Below are positions 1,510-26,347 of a stretch of DNA of 55,375 bases, piece by piece; within the stretch, counting starts at the first letter, position 1; each line of letters begins with the position of its first letter. This DNA is from a virus. Taxonomy: Duplodnaviria > Caudoviricetes. Below the pieces are notes generated by a model. The model saw only the letters and a list, made by a program, of their open reading frames with translations, was not told where the DNA came from and did no database searches. The stretch is taken from IMG/VR virus record IMGVR_UViG_3300008110_000371, positions 1-55,375 of that record; one strand, given 5' to 3'. Position numbers and translations under genes: made by a program.

Positions 1510-1519
1510 GGTGTATTCC

Positions 1520-1975: not shown

Positions 1976-1976
1976 A

Positions 1977-3139: not shown

Positions 3140-3142
3140 AGC

Positions 3143-3808: not shown

Positions 3809-4006
3809 TTACGCGCAGCTAGAGCCGCCCATTTTCATTTTCTTAACACCCTTCATGGCCATGCGCTTGTGCTGGTTGACCAGCCCGCCATTAGCCATCA
3901 ACACAGGACCCGTTTTCTCGCTGGTTTTACTCAGCATCTTGTTGCGCGGTCCTGAAGTTACCGCACCGCCGCCGCGCGTTGCCGCGCCCATGCCACGTCC
4001 AGCCAT
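3809..4006 (-). CDS. Small basic protein (putative internal head protein)
   Basis: 65 aa, Lys/Met/Gly-rich; GMGAATRGG, MANGGLV and MKMGG motifs. Confidence 0.55.
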   Translation of the reverse strand: MAGRGMGAATRGGGAVTSGPRNKMLSKTSEKTGPVLMANGGLVNQHKRMAMKGVKKMKMGGSSCA

Positions 4007-4008
4007 GA

Positions 4009-4173
4009 TTATTTCCCCTTTTTGGCCATTTTCATGGCTTTGCCGCCTTTCTTCATGCCCATGGGCATGGGAGGCATCTTGGGCATAGCACGGCCCATCG
4101 CGTCTTTGGTCTTGCGCTTGACTGCACGGCCCATGTCATCAGCCATACCACCTTTTTGATAACTCTTCATCAT
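4009..4173 (-). CDS. Small basic Met/Lys-rich protein (54 aa, below the ORF-track cutoff)
   Basis: Manual translation MMKSYQKGGMADDMGRAVKRKTKDAMGRAMPKMPPMPMGMKKGGKAMKMAKKGK; start overlaps the upstream stop. Confidence 0.6.
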   Translation of the reverse strand: MMKSYQKGGMADDMGRAVKRKTKDAMGRAMPKMPPMPMGMKKGGKAMKMAKKGK

Positions 4174-4331
4174 GATTTGTTCACCTTTTTTGCGGTTTTT
4201 GCAGACTCCTTAAAAGCTTGCGCCGTAGGAGCACCCTTGGAACCAACTTTGCGCATCTTTTCGCCCGATCCAGCAGCAATACGCTTGCGCTTGGCGTTGA
4301 TATTTGCGTACAGTCCTGGCTTAGTGGCCAT
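4170..4331 (-). CDS. Small basic protein (53 aa, below the ORF-track cutoff)
   Basis: Manual translation MATKPGLYANINAKRKRIAAGSGEKMRKVGSKGAPTAQAFKESAKTAKKVNKS; fills the operon gap exactly. Confidence 0.65.
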   Translation of the reverse strand: MATKPGLYANINAKRKRIAAGSGEKMRKVGSKGAPTAQAFKESAKTAKKVNKS

Positions 4332-4336
4332 CTTCA

Positions 4337-4588
4337 CTATCCCTTTTTCGCGAGGGCATCAATTTTTGACTCAAGTCTTTCAAAGCCTGTGTCAAACCGT
4401 TCCATAATCTTTTCAAGGTCCGCACGAACCTCTGCACGAGTGATGTGATCACGGGCAATTTCCTCCCGAGTTCTATTGAGCAGAATCTGAATGCGCTTCT
4501 GCTCGTCGTGATTCATCTTAATCATAAACATGACTAAGGCAACGAAAAACGACGTTACTAAATTCCAAACAATGACTCCGGTATCCAT
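4337..4588 (-). CDS. Hypothetical protein with N-terminal TM helix and coiled coil
   Basis: Hydrophobic VIVWNLVTSFFVALVMFMI followed by 'LLNRTREEIA' coiled coil. Confidence 0.6.
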   Translation of the reverse strand: MDTGVIVWNLVTSFFVALVMFMIKMNHDEQKRIQILLNRTREEIARDHITRAEVRADLEKIMERFDTGFERLESKIDALAKKG

Positions 4589-4876
4589 TTAACACTTCCA
4601 TCTGCGTCGAGCCTGCCTTATACGGCTGTTTGGGTCTTTGGCTGCTTCAGGAAACTGCTTCATCTGGCCCGCTGAACGAGCACAGAATGACTTCCTTCGC
4701 GCAGCGTCTTTAGGTCCCGGATTGTCCGAGGTTACCGCTGTTTTGAGTTTGCTGCCAGGGTTGGCACGGCGATAGGCTTCGACGCCCTTTTGCGTCATGC
4801 CTGCGCCCTGCTTGGTCGGTCGAAAGTTACCGCTCTTGACCGACGTCGCAATGCCCATGCCCTTGGACTTAGCCAT
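4589..4876 (-). CDS. Conserved basic phage protein
   Basis: 'RRANPGSKLKTAV...RRKSFCARS...DPNSR...ARRRWKC', a recurrent phage head-region family. Confidence 0.65.
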   Translation of the reverse strand: MAKSKGMGIATSVKSGNFRPTKQGAGMTQKGVEAYRRANPGSKLKTAVTSDNPGPKDAARRKSFCARSAGQMKQFPEAAKDPNSRIRQARRRWKC

Positions 4877-5178
4877 TACTGTGCTGCTCCACCGTAAAAA
4901 AGCAGCGTTACGCTGGTGACATTGACATCGTTGACGTCAATAAACACACCATCATCAAACAAAATACCCATGTCCGGGATGATGAGATCACTGGCCCCTG
5001 CCGAAGCAGGCGTGTTGATAGTCATTAACGCAGTGCCCGAAGAGGTGCTGCCGTTCTTCAGGGCAAATGAAGATGCTGTGGCCGTGTTGGTGAAGTACAC
5101 ACCAATCACCCGCGTGCGCCCAGCAATCGCGTGGGCATCGGCAGTCTTGGTGACTGCCTGGATATTACTGGCGCTCAT
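4876..5178 (-). CDS. Putative virion structural protein
   Basis: 100 aa beta-rich, 'IPDMGILFDDGV'; head operon. Confidence 0.55.
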   Translation of the reverse strand: MSASNIQAVTKTADAHAIAGRTRVIGVYFTNTATASSFALKNGSTSSGTALMTINTPASAGASDLIIPDMGILFDDGVFIDVNDVNVTSVTLLFYGGAAQ

Positions 5179-5740: not shown

Positions 5741-7300
5741 CTATGGCGCGGAGGATGCAATGCCGTTATAGACCCACCGTTTTTTACCACAATCGTAGAT
5801 CCTTCTTGCACCCATCAAATAGGTCATCTCTGCCTCAGATCGTGGGTCAGTATCGGCGTCAAAAAAGTCTGTACTTCCATGTTCAATCAGACGTTTTTGA
5901 ATATTTTTACGCTGATAGTGGCTCTTGGGCCAAAGCCCCGTTTTTTGGCTCCAAACCTGATAGTCAGCGGGAATCTCTTCCTCAAGTTTAAAACCTAACT
6001 TCTCGTACATGCCTCCGTCAAAGTAACGATTGTCTGAGAAACTCTTAATCACCACGTCTCCATGGTCTTGCAAAAAGGCCCGAAACAGACGTGATGCAGC
6101 TCCCACTACGGTGATGCGTGTTGCAAATCGAGACAGTGTCCAAACCCGTTCCGTGGCCCCACGATCGTTGGCTCCAAAAGTAAACCGCATACACGCAACA
6201 AGCGCATCGCCATGGTAAAGACCGTAGTGAATGCCTGATCCATTGCCTCCTTGCGGATGGTAACGGTCATAAAACCTCCTGGCATCCAGTGAATCAACCT
6301 TGCGTAAAGCACACTTCCTTGCCATCAACCTGCCTTTGGACCTGCCAACAGCATTTCTAAGCAACCTTCGGACAGCGAACTCGTGTTCCTCCCATTCTGA
6401 CTCAAAGATAGTAATCAAACGGATACCAAGATCGCGACAATCTTGATGCTTTTGAACATGCTTACGCTTGTTTTCCAACTCGTCTTGGGCACTCTCATGG
6501 GAATGCCAATACATCCCGCAATATTCAACGGCCAGACGGTGTTCAGGTAGGTAAATATCAAGCTCCTTGCCTCCCAGTATCTTTCGGTTTCGGGTCTCAA
6601 CCGGTGTGAACATTGACAAAAAACGTCCGACTCTGTCTTCTTGTCTTGACAGTAAATGTCCACATTGTGGACACCCGTGGGCTCGCTTTAGGTGATGTTC
6701 CGCTGTTTGGGTAAAAACGCCATGCTCCTTGCAGTGAATCTCAAGTTTTGATCTCGCACCCAGGTAAACCGTACTACTGTAATCGTACCGATTTCCGTGG
6801 ACACCCAGAGCTTCCTCAACAAAGCGATCACCAAAGACTCGTTTTTTGGTGTCGGCGGTTTTCTTAGCGGCACTTGAGATGTTGAGTCTTTTTCCACGAC
6901 TCAAGGCACCACAAGACGGACACCCTTGCTTTTCGTATAAATGCTTAAGTGGTGTAATGAAAAAATCACCGTGATCCGCACAGGTCACGGTAATCTTAGT
7001 TGTCATGTTGACGTATTGTGTTTTTTCGTAGCCATAGCGACTGCGATGAGCCTCAGAAGCTCTTTCCGCAAACTCCACAGGATCCATCCGTCTGGATTGG
7101 ATACGCTTTTCTTCACCACATCGAGGGCATCCTGCTCCGTTTTTACGCAATTGTGCTGAATACTGTTGAAAGGGTCCGTGTTGAAAGCAGACGATTCCCG
7201 TTATAGGCTTAAGCGCAGAAACATAAATAGCTTGTGAAAAGTCGTAGCGCTGACGAACAGCGTCAGGAAATTTTGCAACAACTTGTTGAGTAGTAAGCAT
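5741..7300 (-). CDS. Free-standing Hef-like homing endonuclease (CxxHG/CPxC Zn-ribbon repeats, Vsr/DUF559-like nuclease, GNAT-like C-terminal domain)
   Basis: Three 'Y.Y....Y......I.C..HG.F......H.....GCP.CG' repeats; 'ELDIYLPEHRLAVEYCGMYWHS' nuclease motif; C-terminal 'VVGAASRLF...SFSDNRYFDGGMYEKLGF'. Confidence 0.7.
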   Translation of the reverse strand: MLTTQQVVAKFPDAVRQRYDFSQAIYVSALKPITGIVCFQHGPFQQYSAQLRKNGAGCPRCGEEKRIQSRRMDPVEFAERASEAHRSRYGYEKTQYVNMTTKITVTCADHGDFFITPLKHLYEKQGCPSCGALSRGKRLNISSAAKKTADTKKRVFGDRFVEEALGVHGNRYDYSSTVYLGARSKLEIHCKEHGVFTQTAEHHLKRAHGCPQCGHLLSRQEDRVGRFLSMFTPVETRNRKILGGKELDIYLPEHRLAVEYCGMYWHSHESAQDELENKRKHVQKHQDCRDLGIRLITIFESEWEEHEFAVRRLLRNAVGRSKGRLMARKCALRKVDSLDARRFYDRYHPQGGNGSGIHYGLYHGDALVACMRFTFGANDRGATERVWTLSRFATRITVVGAASRLFRAFLQDHGDVVIKSFSDNRYFDGGMYEKLGFKLEEEIPADYQVWSQKTGLWPKSHYQRKNIQKRLIEHGSTDFFDADTDPRSEAEMTYLMGARRIYDCGKKRWVYNGIASSAP

Positions 7301-11271: not shown

Positions 11272-11532
11272 CTAGTAGATTTTCACAGGACGATTGCCGT
11301 CCTTTTTCTTGACCGTCATAAACGGACCTTGCACACCGGCAGGGGTGCTGCCAGCCTTGTACTTACGTGACTTGCCTGCGGCGCTGTAGGCAATGGCAGC
11401 GGCTTGCTTAATTGCTTCGCCCCTGTTTTTTGGCTTACTGGTTCCGATGGAACCCGTTTCCTTGTACTTCTTGATCATCTCGCCAATGTTGCCTGAGATG
11501 ACCTTCTGGCTCTTGCCTTGTTTAAGCGGCAT
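11272..11532 (-). CDS. Small basic conserved phage protein
   Basis: MPLKQGKSQKVISGNI.EM...KQAAAIAYS.AGKS. Confidence 0.65.
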   Translation of the reverse strand: MPLKQGKSQKVISGNIGEMIKKYKETGSIGTSKPKNRGEAIKQAAAIAYSAAGKSRKYKAGSTPAGVQGPFMTVKKKDGNRPVKIY

Positions 11533-13933
11533 TGCGACTTCTCCGTTGGTTGATCGCCTGCACCTGCTGTGCGCGGCGGGCGTTTTGATCCATCATGGCT
11601 GCGCGCTCGCGCGCAACCGTAGCACGCTCGGCAGCAATGCGCTCTTGCGATTGAATACGAGCCTGATTGGCTTGTTGATTGGCCTGCGTGCGCTGCTGCT
11701 CGACCAACAGACGCTGCCTGTCGATTTGCTGCTGGGCTTGGTCGTCTTGCGCACGGATCTGGAGCTCTTTTTCTTTGAGCAAGACCAACGGATCAGGTCC
11801 CTGGCCTTGATTACCCATCAACTGGTTCTGGAGATCGCGAATCTCTTGCATGTACATGGCAGTCTTTAGCGCAATCGACGCTTCACGCTGTAAATCAGAC
11901 ACCATGCGGTCAGGATCTTTGCCATAGGCCATAAAGAGCTCGGCCTCAGTCGCTTCTTCGGCCTTCAAGCGCACATGCTCAAGGATATGCTTTTGCAAAA
12001 TCATCGCGGCCATGGGCTGCGCCTGCAACATGGGCGATAAACCCATCATCAAGTGCGATGCGATGTGCGCATCATGCTGTTGCCCTGCAAAAGCCTTCAA
12101 TTCCATTGCATCCAGCACGTCACCGTTCTCCGTTGCCGGATCTTTTGGCATTTGTGTGCGCTGCGGCTTCAAAATGCTGTCGATATCGCGCACATTCATC
12201 GCGGTATAGACGCGATAGTAGGCCTCATAGAGGTTGTGCATCTGCGGTGCGGTCTGCGCCATCTGCAACTGCATCTGGGCAAGCGTCAAACGCTGTGCTG
12301 ACGAGAAAATATTGGGATCTGAGACCGGCTGGACGGCAACAAGGTTGTTGAAGTCCGCTTTTTTGATCTTTCTCGACGCTCCTGGCACGTCATAAGGGTA
12401 CTCATCTGGCAAATACATGCCAAAGCCCTCAGCCAGCAGCTGAAACTCCTCTTTTAGAGCGTAATGCAGCCGTTTATGGATGGCCGACATGACCTGCGTG
12501 CCGCGTTCAAGCAGTGCAAGCGTCGTTCCGACCTGCGCCATTTGGTTGCCCTCGCCAACTTGCATGTCGGCGATGCTGGCAAGACGTCTTCCGGCGTCTA
12601 CACAGAACCCAAGTAGGGCAAAAAGCGTCTGCGAAGGCTCTTTGTAGGGCAAAGGCAGCATGTTTTGCTGCAATTCCGCGCCACCTACGTCAATATCGCG
12701 CCATTCTCCAGGCTGAATCGGGTTGTCTTGGTCCGCGATCCGTGCGCCTTTGGCCTTGAACCCTGCTGGAAGGTTCGATAGGGTGCCTGCATCAAGCAAT
12801 TGACGCAGTGCAGCAGTGGCCGTTTTCGATAAACCACCAACCAAATGCACAAAACCCAAGCCATACGACCCAAGGCCCTCGATTAAGACGTAGTGAACGA
12901 AGTAATTGCGCCTGTTTTTGCGCTCATCGTCCTCTTTCCAATTGCGTTTGACCCCAATAACGCGCTTGGTCGCCTCATCAATCGTGATCACATAGGGCAA
13001 TTTGATGCCTGTTGGCTCGCCTTTGTCGTCCGTGTCCTCAAATCCAGGCAAATCGTAGTCCACCTGGAACTCAAGCAAGAAGATTTCTTCGGGCGCACCG
13101 GTTTCCACGACACCCGTTTGCTTATCCACCTGATAACGGATCTGGCTTGCATCCGATGGATAGAGCTCGCTTTCCACAATCACATCCAAATACTCGCCTG
13201 CGACCACGCGCTTGCGGTATTCGTTGGAGTCCATCGCAATACGATGCGTGATCCGTGGGCATTGGCTCATGACGCTTGATCCGTAGTACGGAATAAACAC
13301 GTCATCTGCCAGCACAAGCTTCGATACCATCCGATCTAGCTGGGCATCGAAGTAAACCTTCTTGAACACCGAGCCGCCATAGCCCAGATAGAACATCGCC
13401 TGATCAAACTCAGGCGTGTATTCCTTCATGACGGTCGTGATCTGGTAGTTCATGAAGTCCTGCACGCGGCCTGCCTGCTGGAACTTGTCTAACGTCTCTT
13501 TGCCCAGGATCTCCGTGCGCACAGGGCCGTTGGCGGGCATGAGCTCCTTGGTTGCTTGCGCTTGGAACTGGACCACAGCTTCCATGAGCAAGGGGTGAGT
13601 TGCCGCTGCCGCGCCTCTGAATGGCTTGGTGCGCTCCTCAAATCTCATGCCCAAGAGCTCAAGGCCCTTGGCATAGGTCTGTTCCCAATCGGAGCGGCTG
13701 GACTTATCGGCCTCGAAGAAGGCAGAAAGGTCAATGGCGATAGCCGATAACACGTCATCGTCCAGGACTTCTGCCAGATTGGCGTAGAAGTCAACATCAT
13801 CGCCTTCGTCTTCCCCGATCTCGATCGTCGCGCCACCATCCTCATCAAGGATGATCTCGATCTCGGGCGCATCACCCGACTCGATCTCGATCGAGGTCTG
13901 CGGGGCTTCGTAGAGGGCTTTGTCGATGGGCAT
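11522..13933 (-). CDS. Portal protein (P22-like, C-terminal coiled-coil barrel)
   Basis: 803 aa; 'SR.DWEQTY.KGLELLG', 'HPLLMEAVVQFQA', 'LRQLLDAGTLSNLPAGFK'; Gln-rich C-terminus; lies between TerL and the head genes. Confidence 0.85.
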   Translation of the reverse strand: MPIDKALYEAPQTSIEIESGDAPEIEIILDEDGGATIEIGEDEGDDVDFYANLAEVLDDDVLSAIAIDLSAFFEADKSSRSDWEQTYAKGLELLGMRFEERTKPFRGAAAATHPLLMEAVVQFQAQATKELMPANGPVRTEILGKETLDKFQQAGRVQDFMNYQITTVMKEYTPEFDQAMFYLGYGGSVFKKVYFDAQLDRMVSKLVLADDVFIPYYGSSVMSQCPRITHRIAMDSNEYRKRVVAGEYLDVIVESELYPSDASQIRYQVDKQTGVVETGAPEEIFLLEFQVDYDLPGFEDTDDKGEPTGIKLPYVITIDEATKRVIGVKRNWKEDDERKNRRNYFVHYVLIEGLGSYGLGFVHLVGGLSKTATAALRQLLDAGTLSNLPAGFKAKGARIADQDNPIQPGEWRDIDVGGAELQQNMLPLPYKEPSQTLFALLGFCVDAGRRLASIADMQVGEGNQMAQVGTTLALLERGTQVMSAIHKRLHYALKEEFQLLAEGFGMYLPDEYPYDVPGASRKIKKADFNNLVAVQPVSDPNIFSSAQRLTLAQMQLQMAQTAPQMHNLYEAYYRVYTAMNVRDIDSILKPQRTQMPKDPATENGDVLDAMELKAFAGQQHDAHIASHLMMGLSPMLQAQPMAAMILQKHILEHVRLKAEEATEAELFMAYGKDPDRMVSDLQREASIALKTAMYMQEIRDLQNQLMGNQGQGPDPLVLLKEKELQIRAQDDQAQQQIDRQRLLVEQQRTQANQQANQARIQSQERIAAERATVARERAAMMDQNARRAQQVQAINQRRSRNAA

Positions 13934-13935
13934 GT

Positions 13936-16900
13936 CTAGGCCTTTTTGCGCTGGCTTACCTGCGCGAGTTTATCGAGTTGTTGCTTGGAAGTCGATGTTT
14001 CACGTGGAACATTGACGGGGCCGCCGTCCTGATAAGGAAAAGGCTCGCCTGTTAGTTTGCTGACAACATCCTTGTCTACGAAAGGTTTCTTAAGAAATAG
14101 ATTATTTGCTGTCAAAAGTTTCCTGAGCTCATCATCAGACAGGCCAGAAGGAAGCTTGCTTCTGCCTCCAAAATCAATGATGTTTTTGACCTCAACGCTT
14201 TTGACGTTTGGATCTTTTTGCGCCTCTTTAAATTCTTTACTGGTTTCAAAAAATTCATCCCACTGCTCGCCTTTGGCATCAAGCACAACCTTAGGCCTGC
14301 GAGTCAGGACAGGAATGATAAAGCCCCTGTCTCCTGAGTACGATTCTGCAATCGTTGGGCTTTCCGTTAACCAAACACCACCTTTGGTATTTGCTTTTGT
14401 GACATCCCTGTCTCCAGGTTGACGTGACACAGTGCCAGCACGACTCCATGGTCTACCTTGTTTAGCATCTCTTAGCGCTAGCTCAATGGCGTCAGGTCGT
14501 TTTTGATATTCATAAACCGCCTCAAGGTATTCGTACGTAGGAGGTTTCTCAAACCCTCCTCCAGGATCCTTCTTGCCACGCAACCACGTACGGTCAACAT
14601 CAATACCTTGTTCCTTAAGTCGGTTCATCAGTTCTTTGACTGAAAACTGTTCAGCCTCGGCAACATCAAGGCCTCTTCCCTTAAAGGCCGTGGAACCCCT
14701 TGCTTTGTCAAGCATGCCAAGAAGTCCCTTTCGGCCTATCATGCCAACAGCAGCCAGGGGCGTTGGAGTAGCCGCAATCCGATAGGCCTCTGTAGGATTT
14801 GTCTCATCGTACGGTCCCATACCAACAAGGGCACGCATGCCTTCACGAATGTCTTTGCGAACCTTTTCCGCATCCTCGTTTTTTTGGGGCAACTTGCCTC
14901 GGCGGTAACTTTCCTGTTGCGCCGTCTTCAAACGATTAAGCATGCGTTGAGACTCTGAACGCATCTCAGCGTTCTCATCGATCAACCTGCCTTCAGCATC
15001 AAGCTGGGGGACTTCTGCTGTGTTGGGCGATGCTGTTTCACGTGAAACATCACCGCCCTCCTGGAATCCAGGAGGAATGGGGGGAACAAGAGGATCCTCT
15101 AATCCGGAGGGCTCTTTATAGGAAATACCACCTGTTCTTCTAAAGGCTGCGTAAGGATCTACATTGCCTTCTGGAGTAAAACCGACATTGGTTTGAAATC
15201 GTGCAAGGGGCTGGTTTTCGATGATACTGCGAATGTTTTGGGCAATGTCTTGAACTTGACTACCCGTCTCGGGCTGCTTCAACATGGTTGCAAAAGCATT
15301 GGCGGTTTCGCCAACTTGCGTAGGTGTCACTCCCTCCAGGCCTTGTAACTGCTCCATGCCAAGCCGTAAAGAACCAAGCCCTGATTGGGGCACAAGGCTG
15401 GGAACATCTTGCAATGTGCGTAGGGTTGCTTCAAAAGAAGCAGGATCGTAAGCCTGCAAGTTGCGTAACGATTGGACTGGATCGATGTCGCCGGTAATTT
15501 GATCGACAGACATCGTATTAGCAAGCCTCTGGTTTAAAACATTGCTCTCTTGCAGAGCGATCAACTGATCAAGCGCGGTCAACTCAGGCGTGGACCTAAG
15601 TTGATTGCGATCAAAGCGGTCAATCATCTCAACAACGCCGGGGTCTGCAAAGCCTGCGCCAAGCCCTTTGTCGCTTAAGCCGGGAGTATAGTCAAGCGGA
15701 TTTGTGGGCGATGCTGTTCCACGTGAAACATCACCGCCCGACTGCTTTTTTATGAAATCCTCCGTGCTGGCTTCACCGCCCTTGCTAAAGAACGCCGTGG
15801 CATACGGGCTTTGCAACGCGCCCATTCCTAAAAGAGGCGACGTTCGCCCCTCCTTCCTGCCATAGGTATCAAAGTGATAAAGCTCGTAGTCCCTTAGCGT
15901 GGGGAACTTTGCTTTGTCCTCGGGCTTGAGCTTGGCATAGGCCGCAGCAATATCCGGGTACTGCTCCGAGTAGCTCTTAGGCGTCTGTTGCTCGGCCAGG
16001 GACGTAAGTGCTGCGCGGTTCCTGGCAAGGAAGGGATCAAACGCCGCTGCAAGATCCGAGGCAAACGCACTTTGCCCGTACTGGACACGCAAGGCGGGAT
16101 CGGCTTTGGTCGGGTCGTACTTTTGCTGCTCAATGTCCCTGAAGCGCAACTTATTTTGCAGCATGGGATCTTCGCCGCTCATCACAAAATCACGAAACGC
16201 CGCCGCTGCACTTGTGGGCGCTTGGGCCGGGAGGCTTTTATCACCAGCTGCTGCCCGTGCGTAAAGCTGCCTGAACTGGTTATCCAGCGTTGACCGATCC
16301 CGCGCAAACTGTTGGCTTGCCGACAAAGGCAAACGCATCTGGCCTGTGACCGGATCGACCATGACTCCCGGTACATCGCCAATGTTAAGCGGCGATCGTG
16401 GGCGGCTCGTGATGCCTGGAGGCGTCCACTTAAAAACATTCGTTCCCGTGGCAGGTGTGAGCTTGGCAGCAGGGCTGTAGTTATAACCCGTGATGCGACC
16501 GAAGCGATCATAGGTCGCGGTTCTCGGTGCAGAGGCCCTGAACTCGGTATCAAGCTGGGGGATTGCGACGCGCTCGCTCTGTGGAATAGCCTTTACGATC
16601 GCGGTGCTCGGATCAAGGCCCTCTTGTCCTGGGGTTAAGGCAGGGGGCGGTGCTTCGGGAGGCGGTGCTGTAGGTGGGACAAAAATATCCGTGAGCGGTG
16701 GCAGATCAGAGGGTGGTTGAAAAAGGAGGAGATCATTACCCTGTGCGCCCTTGATCGTATCATTGCCTTGGCCGCCCGCCACCGTCGTAATAACAGGAGG
16801 TGGTTTTTGATTGACGTCATAAAGATCATTCAAGAGCTGACTTGCCGTTTTACCCGTTGCACGGACTAAGTCCTGCTCATTAAAGCCGCCAATCCCTGTC

Positions 16901-18885
16901 TCTGGGTCGTAGGCTCCCAGCTGCTGTGTCAGCACATCACCCAGTTGCTCCCTGGTCATTTTCGCTGCAACCTGATCCTGGATAAAGTCCCGGATGTTTG
17001 CGGACATGCCTTCAAGACCACCGACACCACGGCCAGGGGCATCGGTTGCACCGATGTCAGGATTCAATAGCGCATGGACAGCGGCTCCCGAGTACTGCGT
17101 CCCGGCCAACGCGTCACGGACGTCCTTGTCCGAAATGCCATACTTCTCCATCTCGGCGCGCACTTCGGCAGCATTAAGGTCCGCACCTTGCGTATTGACA
17201 AAGTTTCGGATGTTTTCGTAGTACTTGGCAGCACCTATGCCACCTTCGCCCGTAGCGTACTTAAGTCCTGATGACACGTCGCCGCCGTCAGCAAACCGTT
17301 GCAGCATTTGTCGAGCTTTACTCTCCTCGTTCTTATCGACTGAACCGCCACTGGCAAAGCCAAAAGGCGCGAAAAAAGGACGCTCTTCTGTGTACCCAGG
17401 CATCCCTGGCTCTCCCTTAACGCCTTTAAGTCGTTTGCTCAAATTTTCATAAAGTTCTTGCATACGATCAACTTGCGTCTGGTAAGGGCTTGTGCGTGGA
17501 ATATCTTTAAGCAACGTCGTTGTGGGCACAGGTTGTGCAAAAGGCGTATCAGTTCTTTCGGTTCCTTGGCCGCTAACCTGTTGATAGGGCTGGAAACCAA
17601 AAAACGTATCATTAACACCTGGGGTGATACCTTGACTCTTTAACAACGAGCTGATGTTCTCACTAAATTTGGGCGAAAGGCGTTGTGCATCCCCCAGCAA
17701 GTCCTGTGCTCTGTAATTGCCCCCAACAAGAAAATTCCCTTTTTGGTCAACAATACCGCGCTCGACAAACCCTTTGGGGTCTCGAAGTGACACCACACCG
17801 TAACCTGTCGTAGGATCCCTGTAAACCGAATCCAGGACGTTGCCTTGTCCGTAATTTTGTTGATAAACCTTACTTTCCCATAGCTGCTGAGATGCTGGTG
17901 CTGCTTGTTCTGTTTGATAAGCACCCTGTGCTTCTTGCACCGCCGATGAAACCGGATCAAACAACTCAGGTCGCTGACGTTGCAGCATTTGATAGTTTGG
18001 GTTTTCTTTCATCAAGCGTTGAGCTTGATCAAACCATTCCATCTTATTTGGCGATAGCGCCTCTTCTTGCTGACGCAGTGCATTGACGCGCTGCAACATA
18101 CCCAAGGCCGTTACATCCTGTGATTTACGCAAACTATCCGCATAGGCTGCTTGTTCTTCAGGCGATAACCCCTGGGATACCCCTGGTATGGGTCGGTCAC
18201 TTCGATAAGCTTTTCCATCAGGACCCTTGACCATGAAGTAACGCTCACCCGTGGCTTCGTCCGTAAAAAGCTGGTTTGCCTCGCCGCCATCAGCAAAACG
18301 CTGCAACATGCGTCTTGCTTCACTTACCTCACCGCCTCCTGCCAACCGAACAAGACCAAAACGACCCTCTAGGGGAATCACATTTTGATTTCCACCAAAC
18401 CCGCCACCCATGCTTCCGTAACCGCTACCGTAAGGCGAGGGCTGCGAAAAAGTGCTACGCGTATTCGTATAAGGAGAGGAGGCACTTGATAAGGGTGATT
18501 GATTCAAAGGAATTGGAGCCGCTTGTTGTTGAAAAGGATTAACAGGTGCTGTCACGTTACCTTGGATCACGGCTCCAGGTCCAAGGGCATTTTGCATCTG
18601 TAAGCGCAGCTGTTGCTGTTGCTGTTGTTGTGCTGCCGCACGTCGAGCCAGAACCTCCTGGCCACTTTGTTCCTGGAACTGTTGGGCATAGGGCTGAATT
18701 GCCTGTTGAAAAGCAGCGGCTGCACCTTGGATGTCCTGCAAACTAAAAGGGCTATTGCCTCGCACAAAAGCATCGTTCAGCTCGCTGAACTGTTGGCTCA
18801 AGTTTGTAACGTTTGCATATGTCGGGTTAGCTGTAAAAAGCTGTGCAAAATTAGGCAGGGCAGTAGGGTTGCCGGACGTGCTCAT
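13936..18885 (-). CDS. Giant modular (polyvalent-like) putative virion/ejected protein with a possible C-terminal ADP-ribosyltransferase-like domain
   Basis: 1649-aa ORF; segments separated by GG motifs; 'YPDIAAAY...HFDTYGRKEGR' repeat-like motif; C-terminal 'RG...GVWLTESPTIAESYS...IIPVL...VKNIID'. Confidence 0.6.
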   Translation of the reverse strand: MSTSGNPTALPNFAQLFTANPTYANVTNLSQQFSELNDAFVRGNSPFSLQDIQGAAAAFQQAIQPYAQQFQEQSGQEVLARRAAAQQQQQQQLRLQMQNALGPGAVIQGNVTAPVNPFQQQAAPIPLNQSPLSSASSPYTNTRSTFSQPSPYGSGYGSMGGGFGGNQNVIPLEGRFGLVRLAGGGEVSEARRMLQRFADGGEANQLFTDEATGERYFMVKGPDGKAYRSDRPIPGVSQGLSPEEQAAYADSLRKSQDVTALGMLQRVNALRQQEEALSPNKMEWFDQAQRLMKENPNYQMLQRQRPELFDPVSSAVQEAQGAYQTEQAAPASQQLWESKVYQQNYGQGNVLDSVYRDPTTGYGVVSLRDPKGFVERGIVDQKGNFLVGGNYRAQDLLGDAQRLSPKFSENISSLLKSQGITPGVNDTFFGFQPYQQVSGQGTERTDTPFAQPVPTTTLLKDIPRTSPYQTQVDRMQELYENLSKRLKGVKGEPGMPGYTEERPFFAPFGFASGGSVDKNEESKARQMLQRFADGGDVSSGLKYATGEGGIGAAKYYENIRNFVNTQGADLNAAEVRAEMEKYGISDKDVRDALAGTQYSGAAVHALLNPDIGATDAPGRGVGGLEGMSANIRDFIQDQVAAKMTREQLGDVLTQQLGAYDPETGIGGFNEQDLVRATGKTASQLLNDLYDVNQKPPPVITTVAGGQGNDTIKGAQGNDLLLFQPPSDLPPLTDIFVPPTAPPPEAPPPALTPGQEGLDPSTAIVKAIPQSERVAIPQLDTEFRASAPRTATYDRFGRITGYNYSPAAKLTPATGTNVFKWTPPGITSRPRSPLNIGDVPGVMVDPVTGQMRLPLSASQQFARDRSTLDNQFRQLYARAAAGDKSLPAQAPTSAAAAFRDFVMSGEDPMLQNKLRFRDIEQQKYDPTKADPALRVQYGQSAFASDLAAAFDPFLARNRAALTSLAEQQTPKSYSEQYPDIAAAYAKLKPEDKAKFPTLRDYELYHFDTYGRKEGRTSPLLGMGALQSPYATAFFSKGGEASTEDFIKKQSGGDVSRGTASPTNPLDYTPGLSDKGLGAGFADPGVVEMIDRFDRNQLRSTPELTALDQLIALQESNVLNQRLANTMSVDQITGDIDPVQSLRNLQAYDPASFEATLRTLQDVPSLVPQSGLGSLRLGMEQLQGLEGVTPTQVGETANAFATMLKQPETGSQVQDIAQNIRSIIENQPLARFQTNVGFTPEGNVDPYAAFRRTGGISYKEPSGLEDPLVPPIPPGFQEGGDVSRETASPNTAEVPQLDAEGRLIDENAEMRSESQRMLNRLKTAQQESYRRGKLPQKNEDAEKVRKDIREGMRALVGMGPYDETNPTEAYRIAATPTPLAAVGMIGRKGLLGMLDKARGSTAFKGRGLDVAEAEQFSVKELMNRLKEQGIDVDRTWLRGKKDPGGGFEKPPTYEYLEAVYEYQKRPDAIELALRDAKQGRPWSRAGTVSRQPGDRDVTKANTKGGVWLTESPTIAESYSGDRGFIIPVLTRRPKVVLDAKGEQWDEFFETSKEFKEAQKDPNVKSVEVKNIIDFGGRSKLPSGLSDDELRKLLTANNLFLKKPFVDKDVVSKLTGEPFPYQDGGPVNVPRETSTSKQQLDKLAQVSQRKKA
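13996..14011. promoter_or_regulatory. parS: parS site (ParB-binding centromere motif)
   Basis: TGTTTCACGTGGAACA; reverse complement TGTTCCACGTGAAACA matches consensus TGTTNCACGTGAAACA. Confidence 0.75.
15034..15049. promoter_or_regulatory. parS: parS site (perfect palindrome)
   Basis: TGTTTCACGTGAAACA, an exact match to the bacterial chromosomal parS consensus. Confidence 0.8.
15715..15730. promoter_or_regulatory. parS: parS site
   Basis: TGTTCCACGTGAAACA matches TGTTNCACGTGAAACA. Confidence 0.75.
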
Positions 18886-18965: not shown

Positions 18966-21458
18966 TCAGTAGTACTCAAATTCCAATTGCGTTGATGGCT
19001 CATCGGCCTCATCGTCGTCCAACGCAACAAAGTTCCCGGCCCTGAACCGGCTGATGGCCTGCACGGTGCTATCGACCAAGTCATCATTATCGCCCTTGGG
19101 GAAAGCGGCACACTCCTCAATCAACTCCTCTGCCCACTTCGTTTGTGGTGCCCAGACCATCCCCGACTCAAACACGGGTGCAACAGCATTCGCGCGGGCG
19201 ATCTTATCCTGATTCTTCTTCCTGCCTCCCGGTGCATAAGTCGTCACAGGAATGCCCACGCGCCGAAGCTCCTGCTGCAAACTCGTCCCCGTGGCCTTGG
19301 CCTCGATCAACACATTATCCGGTCGCCAGTGATCGTACTGGGCCTTAGCTACCCTTTTGAGTTCCGGAAAGTCCCAACGGCCTTTTTTAACATCGAGGAG
19401 AATAATGGCAGGTCCGTCGTCTGCGCTGGGACGGAATACACCCCAGGTGGTGATGGCTGAAAAGTCAGCTGTCTCCTTCTTGCTGTATGCAGTGTCATAG
19501 CTCTGGATAACATATTCAACTTCGGGGGTGTAATCATTTTCCCAGATCCTCCACCAGTCACGCTTTAAAATCGCCCCCTCATCATTGGTGGGCTGCTGCT
19601 GATACATCGACTGCCACTTCTGCACCGACAACGTCGCCCGGACCTTTTGCAACTCATCAAGGCTCCAGTAGCTTGGCCAAAGGGGCTTTTCGTCCTCGGT
19701 ATGCTCATTCAATATCGCCGGAAACTCAATCACTTCCCACTGATCCGACTTCGGCTCCGCTTGCGACCTGATCAACCGTGCCGTCAGATCCTTCATCCCC
19801 CAGCGGGTCATCACAACCACCACCGCCCCTCCGGGTTGCAAACGTGACCGAGGGCCCGAGGTGTACCACTCCCAGGCATTATCCAAAGCAAGCTCTGACA
19901 AAGCGTCCTGTTCGGAATGCGGATCGTCAATAATCAAAAGATCCGCACCGCGCCCTGTCATCGCACCCCCCACACCCACTGCGTAATACTCCCCGCCACC
20001 ATTGGTGTCCCACCGACCAGCAGCCTTTGAATCCGCCTTCAAACTCACCGCCGGAAACAAAGCCTTGTAGTTGTCCTGATCCATCAAGTTACGAACCTTT
20101 CTGCCAAAGCGCACCGCTAACTCGCCGTTGTGCGTGGCTTGAATGATCTTGGACCTTGGCTCACGGCCCATGGCAAAGGCAGGCAAGAGGTAGGACGCAA
20201 ACTCACTTTTCGTGTTATGCGTACACAGATACCCGTCCCCCGCTAAAAACAACCCGTCCCCTCGATCAACCTTGATGCATTGTGTATCGCCTGTCTCATG
20301 AAGCCTTTCTACGGTAATGTATCGGCCAAAGGTCCGCTCGCCCGTCAAAAGACGTTCACGCTTTTTAGGCAACAAACAACAATCACTGTGGTAAAACGAC
20401 ACACGCCACGTTAGGCCATACGACTTGTCACCAATCTTGGCCTCTGACTCAAGCACCGAGGCCTTTGTGCCAAGGCTTCGAATTAACTGCGCAACATCCT
20501 GCGCCATGCGCCAATCGCTTTGAGCAAAAGAACACTGTCCCTTCTTGCTTACACACCCGTCCGTATCCATTAACCCACGCAACAAATCAAGACGTTGTGT
20601 CACCGATCCAAGCATATAAACCTCTGGGATATGCTTATTGCCAAGAACGCCCAGCTCTTTAAGCTTTACTTGAAGGTCAAGCGTGCCGAAGGTTTTCCGT
20701 GTCGCTTGATCCGTGGTTCTTGTTCCACGGCGCTCAAACTCCTGGCGCAAAAACACCCTGTTCTTATCATCCGCCGTAATAATCCCTGAGTTTTTCGAAC
20801 CATCCCCAAGCCATACACCCAGTACATACGGGTCAACCAAAAGGTCTTTTTCCTCGTACTGAACAGGTTTCACATCTGGCAGTCTTGGCAGTCGAACGTC
20901 TATCGCTCGCTTACCCTTCAAAAACTCTGTCTTACCACCACGCGTCTTTCTCAAGACCTCACCATGCTGCCTTCGCCACAACTCCTCCGTGGTGTAGTCA
21001 TGATAAATCCCGTGCTTTCGATCAAGCCTCACGGTCCACAGATGCTCGCCATCCACAACTAACGATGCACCATCGTCGGACGTCACACGATAAAGCGTTC
21101 TGCCACGGAATACCTCTGATTTTCCAATGACTTTGGCGGGCGAGCCATCGACCGAGAACACCGAATCACCGACCTGGAGCTCGGCCATGGTCTTCCACCC
21201 TTGTGTCGTCGGTATCTTCATACTAGTCATTATAGCATGACGTGGAGGCATATTCACGATCAAGCGCTTTAACTCACCATTGATGATGCGGTCAAAGGCG
21301 TTGGCCATGCGACTGTGATGGGCGCTGAAGATCGCCTCCGGCCAAACATAACGAGCAAAGTCCAAGAAAGACTGAGTGCTCTTTTCTTGAGCATCAAGGA
21401 TCCTGAGCCTTAGCTCAAGGCGCAGTTTCTCGGCTTCAACGTCGGCGGGAAGGGTCAT
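18966..21458 (-). CDS. terL: Terminase large subunit, intein-containing
   Basis: Walker A 'NMPPRH|TKSEF' (split by the intein), Walker B 'LLIIDDP', 'VVVMTRW', RNase H-like 'QSYDTA' and 'DDLVDS'; ATG 21458 (alternative TTG 21476). Confidence 0.92.
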   Translation of the reverse strand: MTLPADVEAEKLRLELRLRILDAQEKSTQSFLDFARYVWPEAIFSAHHSRMANAFDRIINGELKRLIVNMPPRHAIMTSMKIPTTQGWKTMAELQVGDSVFSVDGSPAKVIGKSEVFRGRTLYRVTSDDGASLVVDGEHLWTVRLDRKHGIYHDYTTEELWRRQHGEVLRKTRGGKTEFLKGKRAIDVRLPRLPDVKPVQYEEKDLLVDPYVLGVWLGDGSKNSGIITADDKNRVFLRQEFERRGTRTTDQATRKTFGTLDLQVKLKELGVLGNKHIPEVYMLGSVTQRLDLLRGLMDTDGCVSKKGQCSFAQSDWRMAQDVAQLIRSLGTKASVLESEAKIGDKSYGLTWRVSFYHSDCCLLPKKRERLLTGERTFGRYITVERLHETGDTQCIKVDRGDGLFLAGDGYLCTHNTKSEFASYLLPAFAMGREPRSKIIQATHNGELAVRFGRKVRNLMDQDNYKALFPAVSLKADSKAAGRWDTNGGGEYYAVGVGGAMTGRGADLLIIDDPHSEQDALSELALDNAWEWYTSGPRSRLQPGGAVVVVMTRWGMKDLTARLIRSQAEPKSDQWEVIEFPAILNEHTEDEKPLWPSYWSLDELQKVRATLSVQKWQSMYQQQPTNDEGAILKRDWWRIWENDYTPEVEYVIQSYDTAYSKKETADFSAITTWGVFRPSADDGPAIILLDVKKGRWDFPELKRVAKAQYDHWRPDNVLIEAKATGTSLQQELRRVGIPVTTYAPGGRKKNQDKIARANAVAPVFESGMVWAPQTKWAEELIEECAAFPKGDNDDLVDSTVQAISRFRAGNFVALDDDEADEPSTQLEFEYY
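20214..21236 (-). mobile_element. Intein (341 aa) with LAGLIDADG endonuclease; Ala1 class-3-type
   Basis: Starts AIMTSMKIPTTQGW and ends YLCTHN/T; LAGLIDADG motifs 'YVLGVWLGDG' and 'LLRGLMDTDG'; W (block B, EHLW), C (block F, TQCIKV), T (block G, CTHN). Confidence 0.9.
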
Positions 21459-21696
21459 TGGTTTTGAAATTTGCAAAAAATTTTCAGGGAAATCGTGTTC
21501 TAGAACAAGGGGGTGGGTTTCTGGAAACGAGAAAAGTGTACTTATATCAGAAAACTGTTTTAGGCCCTAGTTGTTTTTGCGAAACCGGGCCAAGGTCGGC
21601 GTCCGCTGCGAGGGCCGGGCCATCGCGCTGGATTCTAGAACCTAGAGCGTTATGAAATCTATCGATCGCCGTCGGGACTCGCCCCAGGGGCGGGGG

Positions 21697-21801
21697 CCAG
21701 GGCGCCAGGGCGCGTACCAGGGCGCACGCCTGGGCGATCGGGGCCCGCGTACCAGGGCGCAGCATGCGAGGCCCAAGGCCCAAGGCCCAAGGCCCAAGGC
21801 C
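21697..21801. repeat. GC-rich short repeat cluster upstream of terL
   Basis: Four CCAGGGCGC units, then (GGCCCAA)x4 at 21770-21797. Confidence 0.7.
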
Positions 21802-22367: not shown

Positions 22368-22607
22368 CTAAAAGGTCACCCTTAATTCAGTGGCGATATT
22401 CCACGCCAATGTATATGCATGCTCCCTTACTTGGTCAGACTCAAGACCAAATTCCTCTAAAACTTCCTCAAAATGGGCCTCTTCGTTGTCGATTGTGTAC
22501 TGTATAAGTCGACTAATCATTTGAAAAACTTCCTCAAAATGGGCCTCTTCGTTGTCGATTGTGTACTGTATAAGTCGACTAATCATTTGAAGTTGAGTGC
22601 TATCCAT
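22368..22607 (-). CDS. Small acidic hypothetical protein with an internal 22-aa tandem duplication
   Basis: Likely start MDSTQLQ (AGGGG SD); QMISRLIQYTIDNEEAHFEEV occurs twice. Confidence 0.55.
   Translation of the reverse strand: MDSTQLQMISRLIQYTIDNEEAHFEEVFQMISRLIQYTIDNEEAHFEEVLEEFGLESDQVREHAYTLAWNIATELRVTF
22459..22590. repeat. Exact 66-bp tandem duplication
   Basis: Two consecutive identical copies, period 66. Confidence 0.9.
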
Positions 22608-22689
22608 AAAAACCCCTATAAGAAAAACCCAAAAAACAAGGCGCATGCAAGCCCTGCGCCGAAAACGGAGGCTATAAGCCAATCCATGC

Positions 22690-22929
22690 CTAAACCTCAA
22701 GCTTTTCATTTTCCTCCTGATAGTGGGAGGCGATTTCATGCCAATTAACTTCAGAAATGAAGGTTAGAGCATAATCACGCGCCACGCCTTCGGGGGTCGT
22801 CGAATAGATTATTTCTTCGGCAAACTCTTTAGCGCTGTCGGGATCCCAAGGCCCCTCGGATCCGTCGAATAGCTCTAAATTGACGCGCCATGTAGCGTAG
22901 TTAGTCCAACCATTGTATGTAGTTGCCAT
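22690..22929 (-). CDS. Conserved small phage protein (YNGWTNY.TW family)
   Basis: MATTYNGWTNYATWRVNL...VNWHEIA; AGGAG SD. Confidence 0.7.
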   Translation of the reverse strand: MATTYNGWTNYATWRVNLELFDGSEGPWDPDSAKEFAEEIIYSTTPEGVARDYALTFISEVNWHEIASHYQEENEKLEV

Positions 22930-23924: not shown

Positions 23925-24341
23925 CTATACACTTTTCAAAAAGCTTTGCAAGCCTCCCGAATCCCCAATCCGCCAAACCGCATTCGGTTTTTCGCTTATC
24001 CCTCGCTTGGCAACTTCAACCACGCGATTAGCACGATAGCCGTAAACATCAGTATCGACCGAGCGAAGCACGCTCTCAGGCCAGTAATGCACAAGCAAGG
24101 CATAGCCAATGCCTGCTTCGCTGGCCTGATGAGCAAAGGCGATCTGGTGAGGCGAGAGTGCAACTTTCGCCCCTGCCCTGACAACCTTCAACTCCAGGAA
24201 CACGACACGCCCATCGAGGGCAATCATCACGTCAGGAAAACCCAGCGGAAGCTTGCACTCAACTCTCATCGTCATGGAACAAAGGTCTTTCAATTGGGGC
24301 TGCACCCTTTTCCAAAAGTCCTTTTCTAATTTTCTCGGCAT
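23925..24341 (-). CDS. VRR-NUC / Holliday junction resolvase-like PD-(D/E)XK nuclease
   Basis: 'EKDFW...RVE....GFPDVMI...VVFLELKV......LSPHQIAF'. Confidence 0.75.
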   Translation of the reverse strand: MPRKLEKDFWKRVQPQLKDLCSMTMRVECKLPLGFPDVMIALDGRVVFLELKVVRAGAKVALSPHQIAFAHQASEAGIGYALLVHYWPESVLRSVDTDVYGYRANRVVEVAKRGISEKPNAVWRIGDSGGLQSFLKSV

Positions 24342-25083
24342 TGCTCAACCTTTCCAAAACGGTAGGCTTAGACGGTGCAACGGGTTCCACGTCCAGCACC
24401 TCACCCTGGTCGGACACAATAGCGGGCTTGCTGCCCCCATAAAGCTTGCTGATTTCCTCAAGCTTTTTCATGACCTCTTCTTTGCTCATCGAATCAATCG
24501 TGCCAACCCGGATTTCCTTGCGCTCCACATAGATCGTCCCCAAGGCCTGCCCACGTCGATATTCAGCCGCCACTGCTGCCGAGTAGGCCCCCGCAGCCAA
24601 GGCCATGTCCCTGATCCGTTGCATGTCCTTCATGTGCCGTTCGAACGAAGTGCCATGCTTAACGGCAAGCTCCGTTCTCAATTCCTGGATCGCCTGGACA
24701 ATGTGGGGCGACTGATGGGGATCGGTAAGCTTCCTGGAGTGCCACTCAAGCGTACGTTCAGGATACCCAGCCCTCCTGGCCGCTTCCTTAAGCGTTACGT
24801 CCCCATCCCCGGTCACATACTCCTTAACGAACGTCCACTCCTGCTTGGTCAAGACCTTCTTGCGAACCTTCTTGGGCAACGGCGTAGTAATCCGTTTCTC
24901 AACAACCTCTGGCCGCATCAAGGGGATCTGGTCTAACAAAGGCTTCTGTTCCCGAAGCGGCACTCCAGGCGTGACCACGCCCGTGCTCACGTCGAACACC
25001 GAAGCACCAACGCCAACACCCCCAGAAACCCCCTCAGAACCGTCTACAAGCGATTCTTTCACCGAATCCTTCTGCATACCCAT
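24259..25083 (-). CDS. terS: Terminase small subunit
   Basis: HTH 'LTKQEWTFVKEYV...TLKEAARRAGY' plus 'YSAAVAAEYRRGQALG.IYVERKEIRVGTIDSMS'. Confidence 0.75.
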   Translation of the reverse strand: MGMQKDSVKESLVDGSEGVSGGVGVGASVFDVSTGVVTPGVPLREQKPLLDQIPLMRPEVVEKRITTPLPKKVRKKVLTKQEWTFVKEYVTGDGDVTLKEAARRAGYPERTLEWHSRKLTDPHQSPHIVQAIQELRTELAVKHGTSFERHMKDMQRIRDMALAAGAYSAAVAAEYRRGQALGTIYVERKEIRVGTIDSMSKEEVMKKLEEISKLYGGSKPAIVSDQGEVLDVEPVAPSKPTVLERLSNAEKIRKGLLEKGAAPIERPLFHDDES

Positions 25084-25329: not shown

Positions 25330-25860
<531 letters not shown>

Positions 25861-25920
25861 GACCCTTGGTCCATGAGCCTTGATCCCTGCCACTTCCTCA
25901 CTAAGTTAGTGCCCACTAAC

Positions 25921-25957
25921 AAAACAAAAAGACCCGTGAGCCTTGACCCACGGGCCT
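25921..25957 (-). terminator. Putative rho-independent terminator
   Basis: Minus strand GGCCCGTGGG-TCAAGG-CTCACGGGTC followed by TTTTTGTTTT. Confidence 0.6.
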
Positions 25958-26002
25958 CAATCCGTGAGCCTTGATCCTTAATCCTTGGACCTTGACCCCC
26001 GG

Positions 26003-26102
26003 GCCTACCAAATCTCCTCTGTAACCCGGTTACGGAGGATGTTTTGCCTTTGCGCGCCTACCAAATCTCCTCTGTAACCCGGTTACGGAGGATGTTTTGC
26101 CT
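26003..26102. repeat. Two 47-bp direct repeats, each containing a hairpin
   Basis: GCCTACCAAATCTCCTCTGTAACCCGGTTACGGAGGATGTTTTGCCT at 26003 and 26056. Confidence 0.85.
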
Positions 26103-26110
26103 ATGCTTGC

Positions 26111-26347
26111 CTACTGCACCGCCAGTTGCTTATGCCTTCTGTTGGTGTAGTGCAGGGTTGCTGCATGGACGTGCTCACCGAAAGTGATCTCGCGCACCCC
26201 CTCAACGTCTGCTGCTGTCATAGCGGGCCCCAGGAAGATCATTTTTTGCCCATCGGCAAGTGTGACGTAGAGCACCTGGACGTCTTTTTCAAAGCCAAAA
26301 GCCTCCAGGATCGTCCCTGGGAGGTTTTCTAGATCATTAAGGTCCAT
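26111..26347 (-). CDS. Hypothetical protein
   Basis: 78-aa ORF with AAGGGG SD. Confidence 0.55.
   Translation of the reverse strand: MDLNDLENLPGTILEAFGFEKDVQVLYVTLADGQKMIFLGPAMTAADVEGVREITFGEHVHAATLHYTNRRHKQLAVQ

Follow-up and report, generated by a model that had tools for sequence, protein, structure and literature searches.

Phage phi29 is described as containing five parS sites for the host protein Spo0J and as exploiting part of the host segregation machinery for spore entrapment (PMC2731898), and a second account presents phi29 parS and Spo0J likewise, citing Meijer et al. 2005 (PMC9437464). Our scan of the phi29 genome (EU771092.1) recovered four perfect copies of TGTTTCACGTGGAACA—at 10445 in the connector gene, 15903 in gene 15, 17243 (1 nucleotide [nt] after the packaging ATPase gene), and 18760 in gene 17—and ten matches at up to three mismatches, a number reached by none of 200 shuffles. 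Here, we describe three parS sites of the same chromosomal type in IMG/VR virus record IMGVR_UViG_3300008110_000371 (Duplodnaviria; Caudoviricetes), which was analyzed as a whole (55,375 bases, estimated 92% complete; hereafter, the window). All three lie inside a single minus-strand open reading frame (ORF) for a protein of 1649 amino acids (aa), encoded between the large terminase gene (terL) and the portal gene.

Like phi29 (and Nf), the window represents a virulent podophage that carries several perfect host-type parS sites, mostly inside genes, and no ParAB of its own. With phi29, orphan host-type parS in a virulent phage, some of it within genes, is already a known kind of element, and because this precedent is published, the idea is less new than a preliminary description of this DNA had implied. 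Several features nevertheless set the two apart. Whereas phi29 is a protein-primed, 19-kb phage of an unrelated lineage, the window phage has a genome of ~55 kb with PolA and primase and is akin to phage DSL-LC04 and to the HTVC023P-type pelagiphages. Moreover, the phi29 function is tied to sporulation, together with Spo0A boxes. The hosts of the window's named relatives—SAR11, Roseobacter, Caulobacter, cyanobacteria, and 'Gammaproteobacteria'—include no spore formers to our knowledge, and the biological pay-off must therefore be a different one. Finally, and again unlike in phi29, the sites in the window's lineage are syntenic with terL across the lineage and double as joints between gene cassettes.

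The likeness to chromosomal ParABS systems extends to the identical palindrome, to the same variants (T/C at position 5, A/G at position 12, and an occasional change of the outermost base), and to clustering within a few kilobases; yet the window sites reside on a phage, have neither adjacent parAB nor an origin context, and are read in frame within a coding gene. Centromere logic of the ParB type on a phage genome is also familiar from the ParAB-parS system of P1, from SopAB of N15, and from phages with a ParB of their own and dispersed cognate palindromes. Such elements carry genes for ParA, ParB, or both and rely on site sequences that are theirs and not chromosomal, whereas the window encodes neither protein and uses the host consensus. 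Full-text literature searches turned up no account of parS for lytic phages outside Bacillus, HTVC023P-type phages included, and neither 'parS' nor 'ParB' appears in the main text of the work on uncultivated HTVC023P-type genomes.

Chromosomal-type parS sites within a phage coding sequence

Exactly three 16-mers in the record match TGTTNCACGTGNAACA, at 13996, 15034, and 15715, and none of 100 dinucleotide-preserving shuffles of the window contained a match. The preliminary description had placed the sites at these very positions and had read them as VPRET, VSRET, and VSRGT, respectively, which proved exact. The further genome scan that it proposed returned no additional site within two mismatches anywhere in the 55,375 bases. 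By arithmetic estimate, a chance match to the 14 fixed bases would occur at ~4e-9 per position.

Site 1 (13996–14011; TGTTTCACGTGGAACA on the window strand, TGTTCCACGTGAAACA on the gene strand) encodes VPRET (aa 1626–1630) in the conserved C-terminal tail of the protein, 78 nt ahead of the portal start. A site at this same distance recurs in seven relatives (L017, L019, L022–L024, L031, and L032). Site 2 (15034–15049) is a perfect palindrome, TGTTTCACGTGAAACA, encoding VSRET (aa 1280–1284) in the linker ...FQEGGDVSRETASP; its 16-mer is contained in the 20-bp duplex of the Caulobacter ParB DNA-binding-domain co-crystal, as that structure is described (PMC7383237). Site 3 (15715–15730; TGTTCCACGTGAAACA on the window strand, TGTTTCACGTGGAACA on the gene strand) encodes VSRGT (aa 1053–1057) in the linker ...EDFIKKQSGGDVSRGTASP. 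We also considered an extended palindrome of 34–37 nt around sites 2 and 3 as the relevant unit and rejected it, as it is not kept in other contexts; the unit is the 16-mer. The palindromic core, CACGTG, is found six times in the whole record against 13.8 ± 3.9 expected, and three of the six occurrences are parS cores. Outside of parS, the hexamer is thus about four-fold under-represented, which could reflect avoidance of a restriction site or of half-sites.

To separate the protein from the DNA, V[SP]R[EG]T peptides were gathered from translations of the window and loci L004–L092, irrespective of the underlying DNA. Each of the 46 peptides is written in parS codons, the sole deviation being ACG in place of ACA in four cases. 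Synonymous codons that break the palindrome—an outcome that the preliminary description had named as speaking against its proposal—were otherwise not encountered. For a comparison codon by codon, we considered ORFs of at least 200 aa with distinct 87-nt contexts (n = 32). Codon pairs are not phylogenetically independent in such a set, and the flanks of the same sequences serve as the internal control. Flanking codons for the same residue differed in 930 of 2554 pairwise comparisons (36%), as opposed to 60 of 1993 (3%) for the five core parS codons, and all 60 were ACA/ACG exchanges at the last codon. Codon –1 differed in none of 227 comparisons, and its third base, the first T of parS, was T in 32 of 32 contexts although the residues D, N, I, and F have alternatives. 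Codon +5, on the other side, differed in 68%. With the flanks varying and the codons from –1 through the core frozen, the constrained stretch is therefore exactly the 16-mer.

The protein sequence does change within the motif, albeit only where parS itself tolerates variation: residue exchanges (S/P and E/G) are confined to parS positions 5 and 12. Over 69 distinct contexts of the lineage, position 5 was T or C in 69, position 12 was A or G in 68, and position 16 was A in 63 and G in six. Of 29 database homologs, 22 contain the motif, in 43 copies that include all four S/P × E/G combinations. Selection on the DNA motif, not on the peptide, is strongly supported by these sequence comparisons; it had been suggested from the three window sites and is further borne out by copies of the motif in non-coding DNA and in another reading frame. 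Nor are the sites the by-product of one recent duplication, which the preliminary description had raised as a possible objection, because they occur in 32 different flanking contexts. The window sites hence combine the 16-bp palindrome, the permitted variation, and the coding-independent constraint on the DNA that characterize chromosomal-type parS.

Recurrence of parS beside terL

By portal similarity, the metagenome-assembled phage DSL-LC04 (76%) is the named relative closest to the window; Pelagibacter phages HTVC023P and HTVC027P come next (~50%), then Roseobacter phages CRP-901 and CRP-902 (42%), with freshwater cyanophages (35%) and Caulobacter phages (33%) being more distant. A megablast search of the parS region against named phages gave no match. 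The host of the window phage was approached in two further ways: no tRNA genes that might point to a host were found, and an assignment from bins of metagenome-assembled genomes (MAGs) was rejected, since these bins held only phage contigs under inconsistent taxonomy (unclassified bacterium, Chloroflexota, Kordiimonadaceae, and Limnohabitans).

The scan of relatives suggested by the preliminary description revealed sites to be common beside terL. We assembled 80 portal-anchored loci without regard to parS, 12 of which reach from the portal gene to 300 nt or more upstream of terL. Ten of these 12 have at least one site (in one of the ten, only with one mismatch), and every parS match in the 80 loci lies upstream of the portal gene. 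The sites may be non-coding: L050 harbors five of them within 375 nt, in an ORF-poor and tandem-repeat-rich stretch of ~740 nt directly upstream of terL, while a single site precedes the terL start by 21 nt in L073 and by ~270–285 nt in L055 and L029. G010, a CheckV-complete 62-kb record with direct terminal repeats, has one site 204 nt upstream of terL and another 43 nt after the portal stop. Even L137 and L209, whose TerL is 27% identical to that of the window, carry five perfect sites each upstream of terL. As inferred from alignment offsets, a site falls within ~150 nt of the terL start in another six loci (L103, L113, L146, L159, L164, and L202). Elsewhere, sites are located in the intervening gene, as in the window (L119, reading GGVVSRET; L123, reading NVPRET; and L153), or just after the portal gene (L114, L155, and L168), and in some contigs they are translated in another frame, as FHVK or FHVE. 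Among five cultured relatives scanned, HTVC027P (L230; MN698241.1) has a single parS match at 15 of 16 positions, CGTTTCACGTGAAACA at 16412–16427, in the 291-nt gap between the convergent genes gp31 and gp32 and ~600 nt from the small terminase gene (terS). On this sequence evidence, 'parS next to terL' is a lineage-wide feature. The zero count for G001 was not accepted as a true negative, as that record ends inside the intervening gene.

A scan of IMG/VR provided a comparison at the level of the collection. As a control we used the letter-reversed palindrome, which has the same composition as the parS pattern. The parS pattern was present in at least 119 stretches and the control in 59 in total. 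Among the matches listed, multi-site loci made up 19 of 119 for parS versus none of 59 for the control, and a portal or TerL related to that of the window (E ≤ 1e-10) was found in 24 of 119 versus none of 59; with relatedness set at 40% identity or more over at least 200 aa, the numbers were 18 versus zero. Positions 5 and 12 were Y and R in 145 of 151 parS sites among the matches listed, whereas the free positions of the control use all bases. Among the related loci listed, the site is usually close to terL. The possibility that parS marks physical genome ends was tried and set aside, given that the share of matches within 300 nt of a contig end (21 of 119 listed, versus six of 59 for the control) does not differ convincingly.

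Two side observations were made. Five IMG/VR contigs unrelated to the window (L105, L116, L135, L136, and L098) have two to four canonical parS sites each; L105, L116, L135, and L098 lack ParB_N, and two of these four are small (12.3 and 18.1 kb). The phi29 case may understate how many phages have orphan host-type parS. In addition, a heptamer repeat (AGGCCCA, 4.7 copies) is found at window positions 21769–21801, ~300 nt upstream of terL, and L050 has eight copies of GACCCGT at 3405–3450, interleaved with its five parS sites. Short G + C-rich heptamer arrays upstream of terL may constitute a second conserved feature of the lineage.

Cassettes and joints of the terL–portal gene

The gene that holds the three sites (13936–18885, minus strand) is modular, with cassettes joined by Gly-rich linkers of the type F-x-K-GG-x-V. 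Throughout the 80 portal-anchored loci, the gene at this location is hypervariable, with lengths between a few hundred and over 2000 residues and several unrelated C-terminal tails. Two cassettes of the window gene are delimited by parS. Cassette X (15049–15714, minus strand; aa 1058–1279) is flanked by sites 3 and 2, which share a 37–40-nt direct repeat, and cassette Y (14012–15033, minus strand; aa 1285–1625) is flanked by sites 2 and 1. The two come and go separately: X is missing from L004 and present without Y in P0030, while other cassettes take the place of Y in L006 and L007, and Y is absent from L005, L009, and P0030. All four combinations of presence and absence occur, including neither cassette in L005.

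When the window gene was compared with its relatives by blastn, blocks of homology started or stopped at the parS sites, which lie at gene nt 3156 (site 3), 3837 (site 2), and 4875 (site 1). L004 aligns over 550–3181 and again over 3828–4950, the two blocks overlapping on the shared 35 nt, and hence runs through without cassette X. In five relatives (L007, L015, L016, L025, and L029), homology ends at 3171, the last base of site 3; in L014, it begins at 3827; and in L005, L009, L019, L025, L027, and L029, it resumes at 4870, five bases before site 1. The parS sites are thus the joints at which cassettes of this modular gene are swapped. We attribute this to the islands being kept for another reason: as the only homology left between diverged cassettes, they capture the crossovers. 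In this respect they resemble the boundary ('linker') sequences of modular phage evolution, where short conserved islands at module borders are mosaic breakpoints. Unlike known boundary sequences, however, the window joints have an identifiable independent function as predicted parS, and recombination would occur there because this role keeps the islands conserved. Sites can also be lost. L020 has a duplicated linker (DVSRG-DVSRGT, at ~2650–2685) whose first copy uses TCT for TCA and is no parS, while the second keeps the site, and the tail of L036 has VSRKT with a CACGTA core; both are instances of site decay.

Searched with Pfam, the 1649-aa protein gave only sub-threshold matches, to ART-PolyVal (E 0.0027; 18.9 bits against a cut-off of 31.2) within cassette Y and to RTX. 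Pfam searches with five pieces of the protein likewise yielded only sub-threshold matches, PHROGs had no match, and the ESM Atlas had no usable one. AlphaFold2 modeled cassette Y from a 10-row alignment at a mean pLDDT of 43 and a pTM of 0.27. Homologs P0026, P0028, and P0029 carry precomputed PF18760 (ART-PolyVal) assignments, P0026 also PF14284, and the DSL-LC04 counterpart is annotated as 'PcfJ-like protein'. Because of these homologs, and from domain matches that are sub-threshold or precomputed, we consider the protein to be probably polyvalent-protein-like and carried in the virion. It would share with the polyvalent proteins of phages and conjugative elements a large, hypervariable, multi-cassette build with ART-PolyVal and PcfJ-type modules in its homologs, a class assignment that derives from the same sub-threshold and precomputed matches.

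The surroundings of the gene are those of a packaging and head region. The portal gene (11522–13933, minus strand) follows directly downstream, and terL (18966–21476, minus strand) contains an intein (LAGLIDADG/Hom_end) between its ATPase and nuclease parts, with Pfam matches at residues 283–353; in relatives such as DSL-LC04 and G010, the terL product has ~490 aa and no intein. A candidate terS (24259–25083, minus strand) matches Terminase_2 below threshold (E 7e-4) and is 54% identical to a DSL-LC04 region annotated as terminase small subunit. Just upstream of it, ORFs reaching 80 aa are missing from the ~1.4-kb segment 25325–26770, which contains 30 consecutive T (25438–25467) and several tandem repeats (25783–26114), among them a 53-nt unit in 2.1 copies, and in which GC skew is stronger than anywhere else in the record; this segment may represent an origin, a terminus, or a promoter region. 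A gene for a 519-aa HNH/homing endonuclease (5741–7300, minus strand) sits among the head genes and is probably a mobile insertion, because it has no counterpart in G010, G001, or DSL-LC04. A perfect 66-nt tandem duplication (22459–22591; 2.0 copies, 100% identity) lies inside the small ORF 22368–22739.

Candidate readers and competing explanations

Which protein would read the sites? Six-frame searches of the window for PF02195 (ParB_N), PF17762 (HTH_ParB), and PF13614 (ParA-type AAA_31) gave no match at E ≤ 1, while control genomes matched, upholding the earlier claim that the window lacks parAB. A self-contained ParABS cassette, with parA and parB on the same replicon, is accordingly not found in this record, which is an estimated 92% complete. 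ParB_N is also absent from three CheckV-complete parS-bearing records (G010 among them) and from five other multi-parS viral contigs. In MAGs, contig C177 of G018 has three sites within 1.1 kb beside parB, and contig C12 of G017 has three within 2.5 kb. Phages whose terminases have diverged widely share the 14 fixed bases with one another and with bacterial chromosomal sites—an invariance that we ascribe to reading by a universally conserved host protein, since the site of a phage-specific reader should have changed along with that reader. Since the phage has no ParB of its own, host ParB is the most likely reader as far as sequence can tell.

The preliminary description had sought further support in a Leu762 polymerase and the lack of an integrase. 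The first observation stands: DNA polymerase A (32635–35463, minus strand) has an intein inside motif B, and across the extein junction (...RKVAKT/CTLAIMYG...) the motif supplies a Leu at what we take to be the position of E. coli Phe762. As to the second, Pfam detected no integrase, ParA, or ParB among 30 small or early window proteins. The argument built on the two is circumstantial, though.

We regard it as somewhat more likely than not that selection on the DNA maintains these sequences as true parS of the chromosomal type, which load host ParB and let host ParA/SMC position the phage genome, as in phi29. After entry, ParB dimers would nucleate on the sites and close as CTP clamps, and spreading of ParB over the terL–portal neighborhood would mark the phage genome like a chromosomal origin. 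Host ParA/SMC could then position this genome and hand it to daughter cells in a delayed or persistent infection. Because the genome is compact, the cis-element would have been placed in permissive coding sequence, namely the flexible Gly-rich linkers of a cassette-built gene, and the invariant islands of 16–37 nt would serve as homologous crossover points and so become cassette joints.

Several points weigh against this reading. Partition and titration work from any position, which leaves the association with terL and portal unexplained and hints at an action in cis. For this phage group there is no record of persistence or of a carrier state, and HTVC027P is reported as lytic with an 18-h latent period (PMC12753301). 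DSL-LC04, a complete circular genome and the closest named relative, has no site within one mismatch; nor do four of the five other cultured relatives scanned—HTVC023P, CRP-901, Caulobacter phage RW, and MinM2—within one mismatch of the Y5/R12 site, and two of the 12 spanning loci (L040 and L046) are likewise without one. The sites are not universal, and these genomes speak against an essential role for them. Lastly, ~20 small early proteins of the window are orphans without a recognizable domain, and a phage-encoded reader may conceivably be among them.

An extension in which both properties of the sites are put to use is possible, albeit rather unlikely. The sites would act as host-ParB centromeres by which an integrase-less lineage is positioned and inherited in slowly dividing aquatic hosts and, at the same time, as crossover joints of a virion-carried polyvalent protein that is shuffled between co-infecting phages, with ParB-bound sites possibly stimulating the exchange.

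The association with terL could instead mean that host ParB, loaded beside this gene or within the next one, extends across the packaging and head genes to dampen or time their expression, so that late development would follow the ParB or cell-cycle state of the host, a kind of lytic deferment. In all relatives examined, the sites keep to the terL–portal neighborhood; they directly precede terL in L073, L055, L029, L050, and G010, approach its inferred start to ~150 nt or less in the six loci named above, and stay upstream of the portal gene in the portal-anchored set, all of which would suit such a role. A Pseudomonas paper announces in its title that ParB represses promoters adjoining parS3 and parS4, and host regulators that defer lysis are described for phi29/Spo0A and CtrA phages (PMC9437464). 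We nonetheless find this explanation unlikely, as the window sites lie 2.6–7.5 kb downstream of the terL start, within a coding region and not at a promoter, and as local duplication turnover along with few permissive positions could give the clustering with no cis role. Chromosomal ParB is, besides, usually a weak silencer.

Alternatively, the sites may be decoys: replicating phage DNA would multiply parS, drain ParB from the host origin, and disturb chromosome segregation and division to the advantage of the phage, amounting to a protein-free takeover. Orphan sites in a phage with no ParAB, present at one to five copies per genome and amplified by replication, would fit, and the canonical consensus leads one to expect high affinity. 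Titration needs no positional conservation near terL, however; the single site per genome of many relatives would be a weak decoy early in infection, and lytic phages usually stop host division by other means. We therefore rate the decoy explanation as improbable.

Less probable again is a phage protein—an unrecognized helix-turn-helix (HTH) protein, the small terminase, or a ParB derivative beyond the reach of Pfam—that reads the palindromes for packaging or replication, for instance in association with pac. The closeness of the sites to terL, and to terS in HTVC027P, is compatible with this idea, as are the iteron-like tandem repeats among which the L050 sites lie and the many orphan early proteins, along with a weak MarR-like HTH at window positions 29270–29596. 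Yet a phage-specific pair of reader and site should co-diverge, whereas the 14 fixed positions are identical in L137 and L209, whose TerL is so distant, and in the bacterial site. ParB_N and HTH_ParB are absent from the six frames of the window, and ParB_N from the complete relatives. Window genes shared with parS-positive G010 and missing from parS-negative DSL-LC04 come down to two neighboring small ORFs (488–934 and 934–1509) at the far end of the virion-gene block; this phyletic search (genes shared with G010 and absent from DSL-LC04 and G001) has low power, the early region being almost wholly unique to the window.

That the motif is no more than a conserved linker peptide or a recombination joint with a coincidental match to parS is scarcely credible: the sites do sit in a recurrent linker (GG-x-V...) that is found family-wide even without parS, and homology breakpoints do coincide with them, but a peptide constraint, already contradicted by the codon data, would free the synonymous positions that are frozen over exactly 16 bases, and relatives have this 16-mer outside genes as well as read in a different frame. 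The chance of a coincidental match to the 14 fixed bases is ~4e-9 per position.

As far as we found, the phi29 family, which uses it for spore entrapment, is the only documented case of host-parS hijacking by a virulent phage. What appears to be the same device is now seen in a podophage lineage that is unrelated, widespread in the environment, and has relatives in culture on SAR11, Roseobacter, and Caulobacter. In this locus, a cis-acting DNA element is naturally embedded in the coding sequence of a protein linker, with synonymous sites frozen, and the arrangement offers an explanation for where mosaic joints fall in a hypervariable phage gene. HTVC027P, with its 15-of-16 site, is a cultured phage–host pair that gives a handle on binding by host ParB. 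If host ParB does load, orphan canonical parS would be a sequence marker for such phages in metagenomes, and 'lytic' phages of slow-growing bacteria would have a protein-free way to persist, to be inherited, or to time their late genes. 'Pseudolysogeny' would then gain a molecular basis in an integrase-less lineage related to the abundant pelagiphages.

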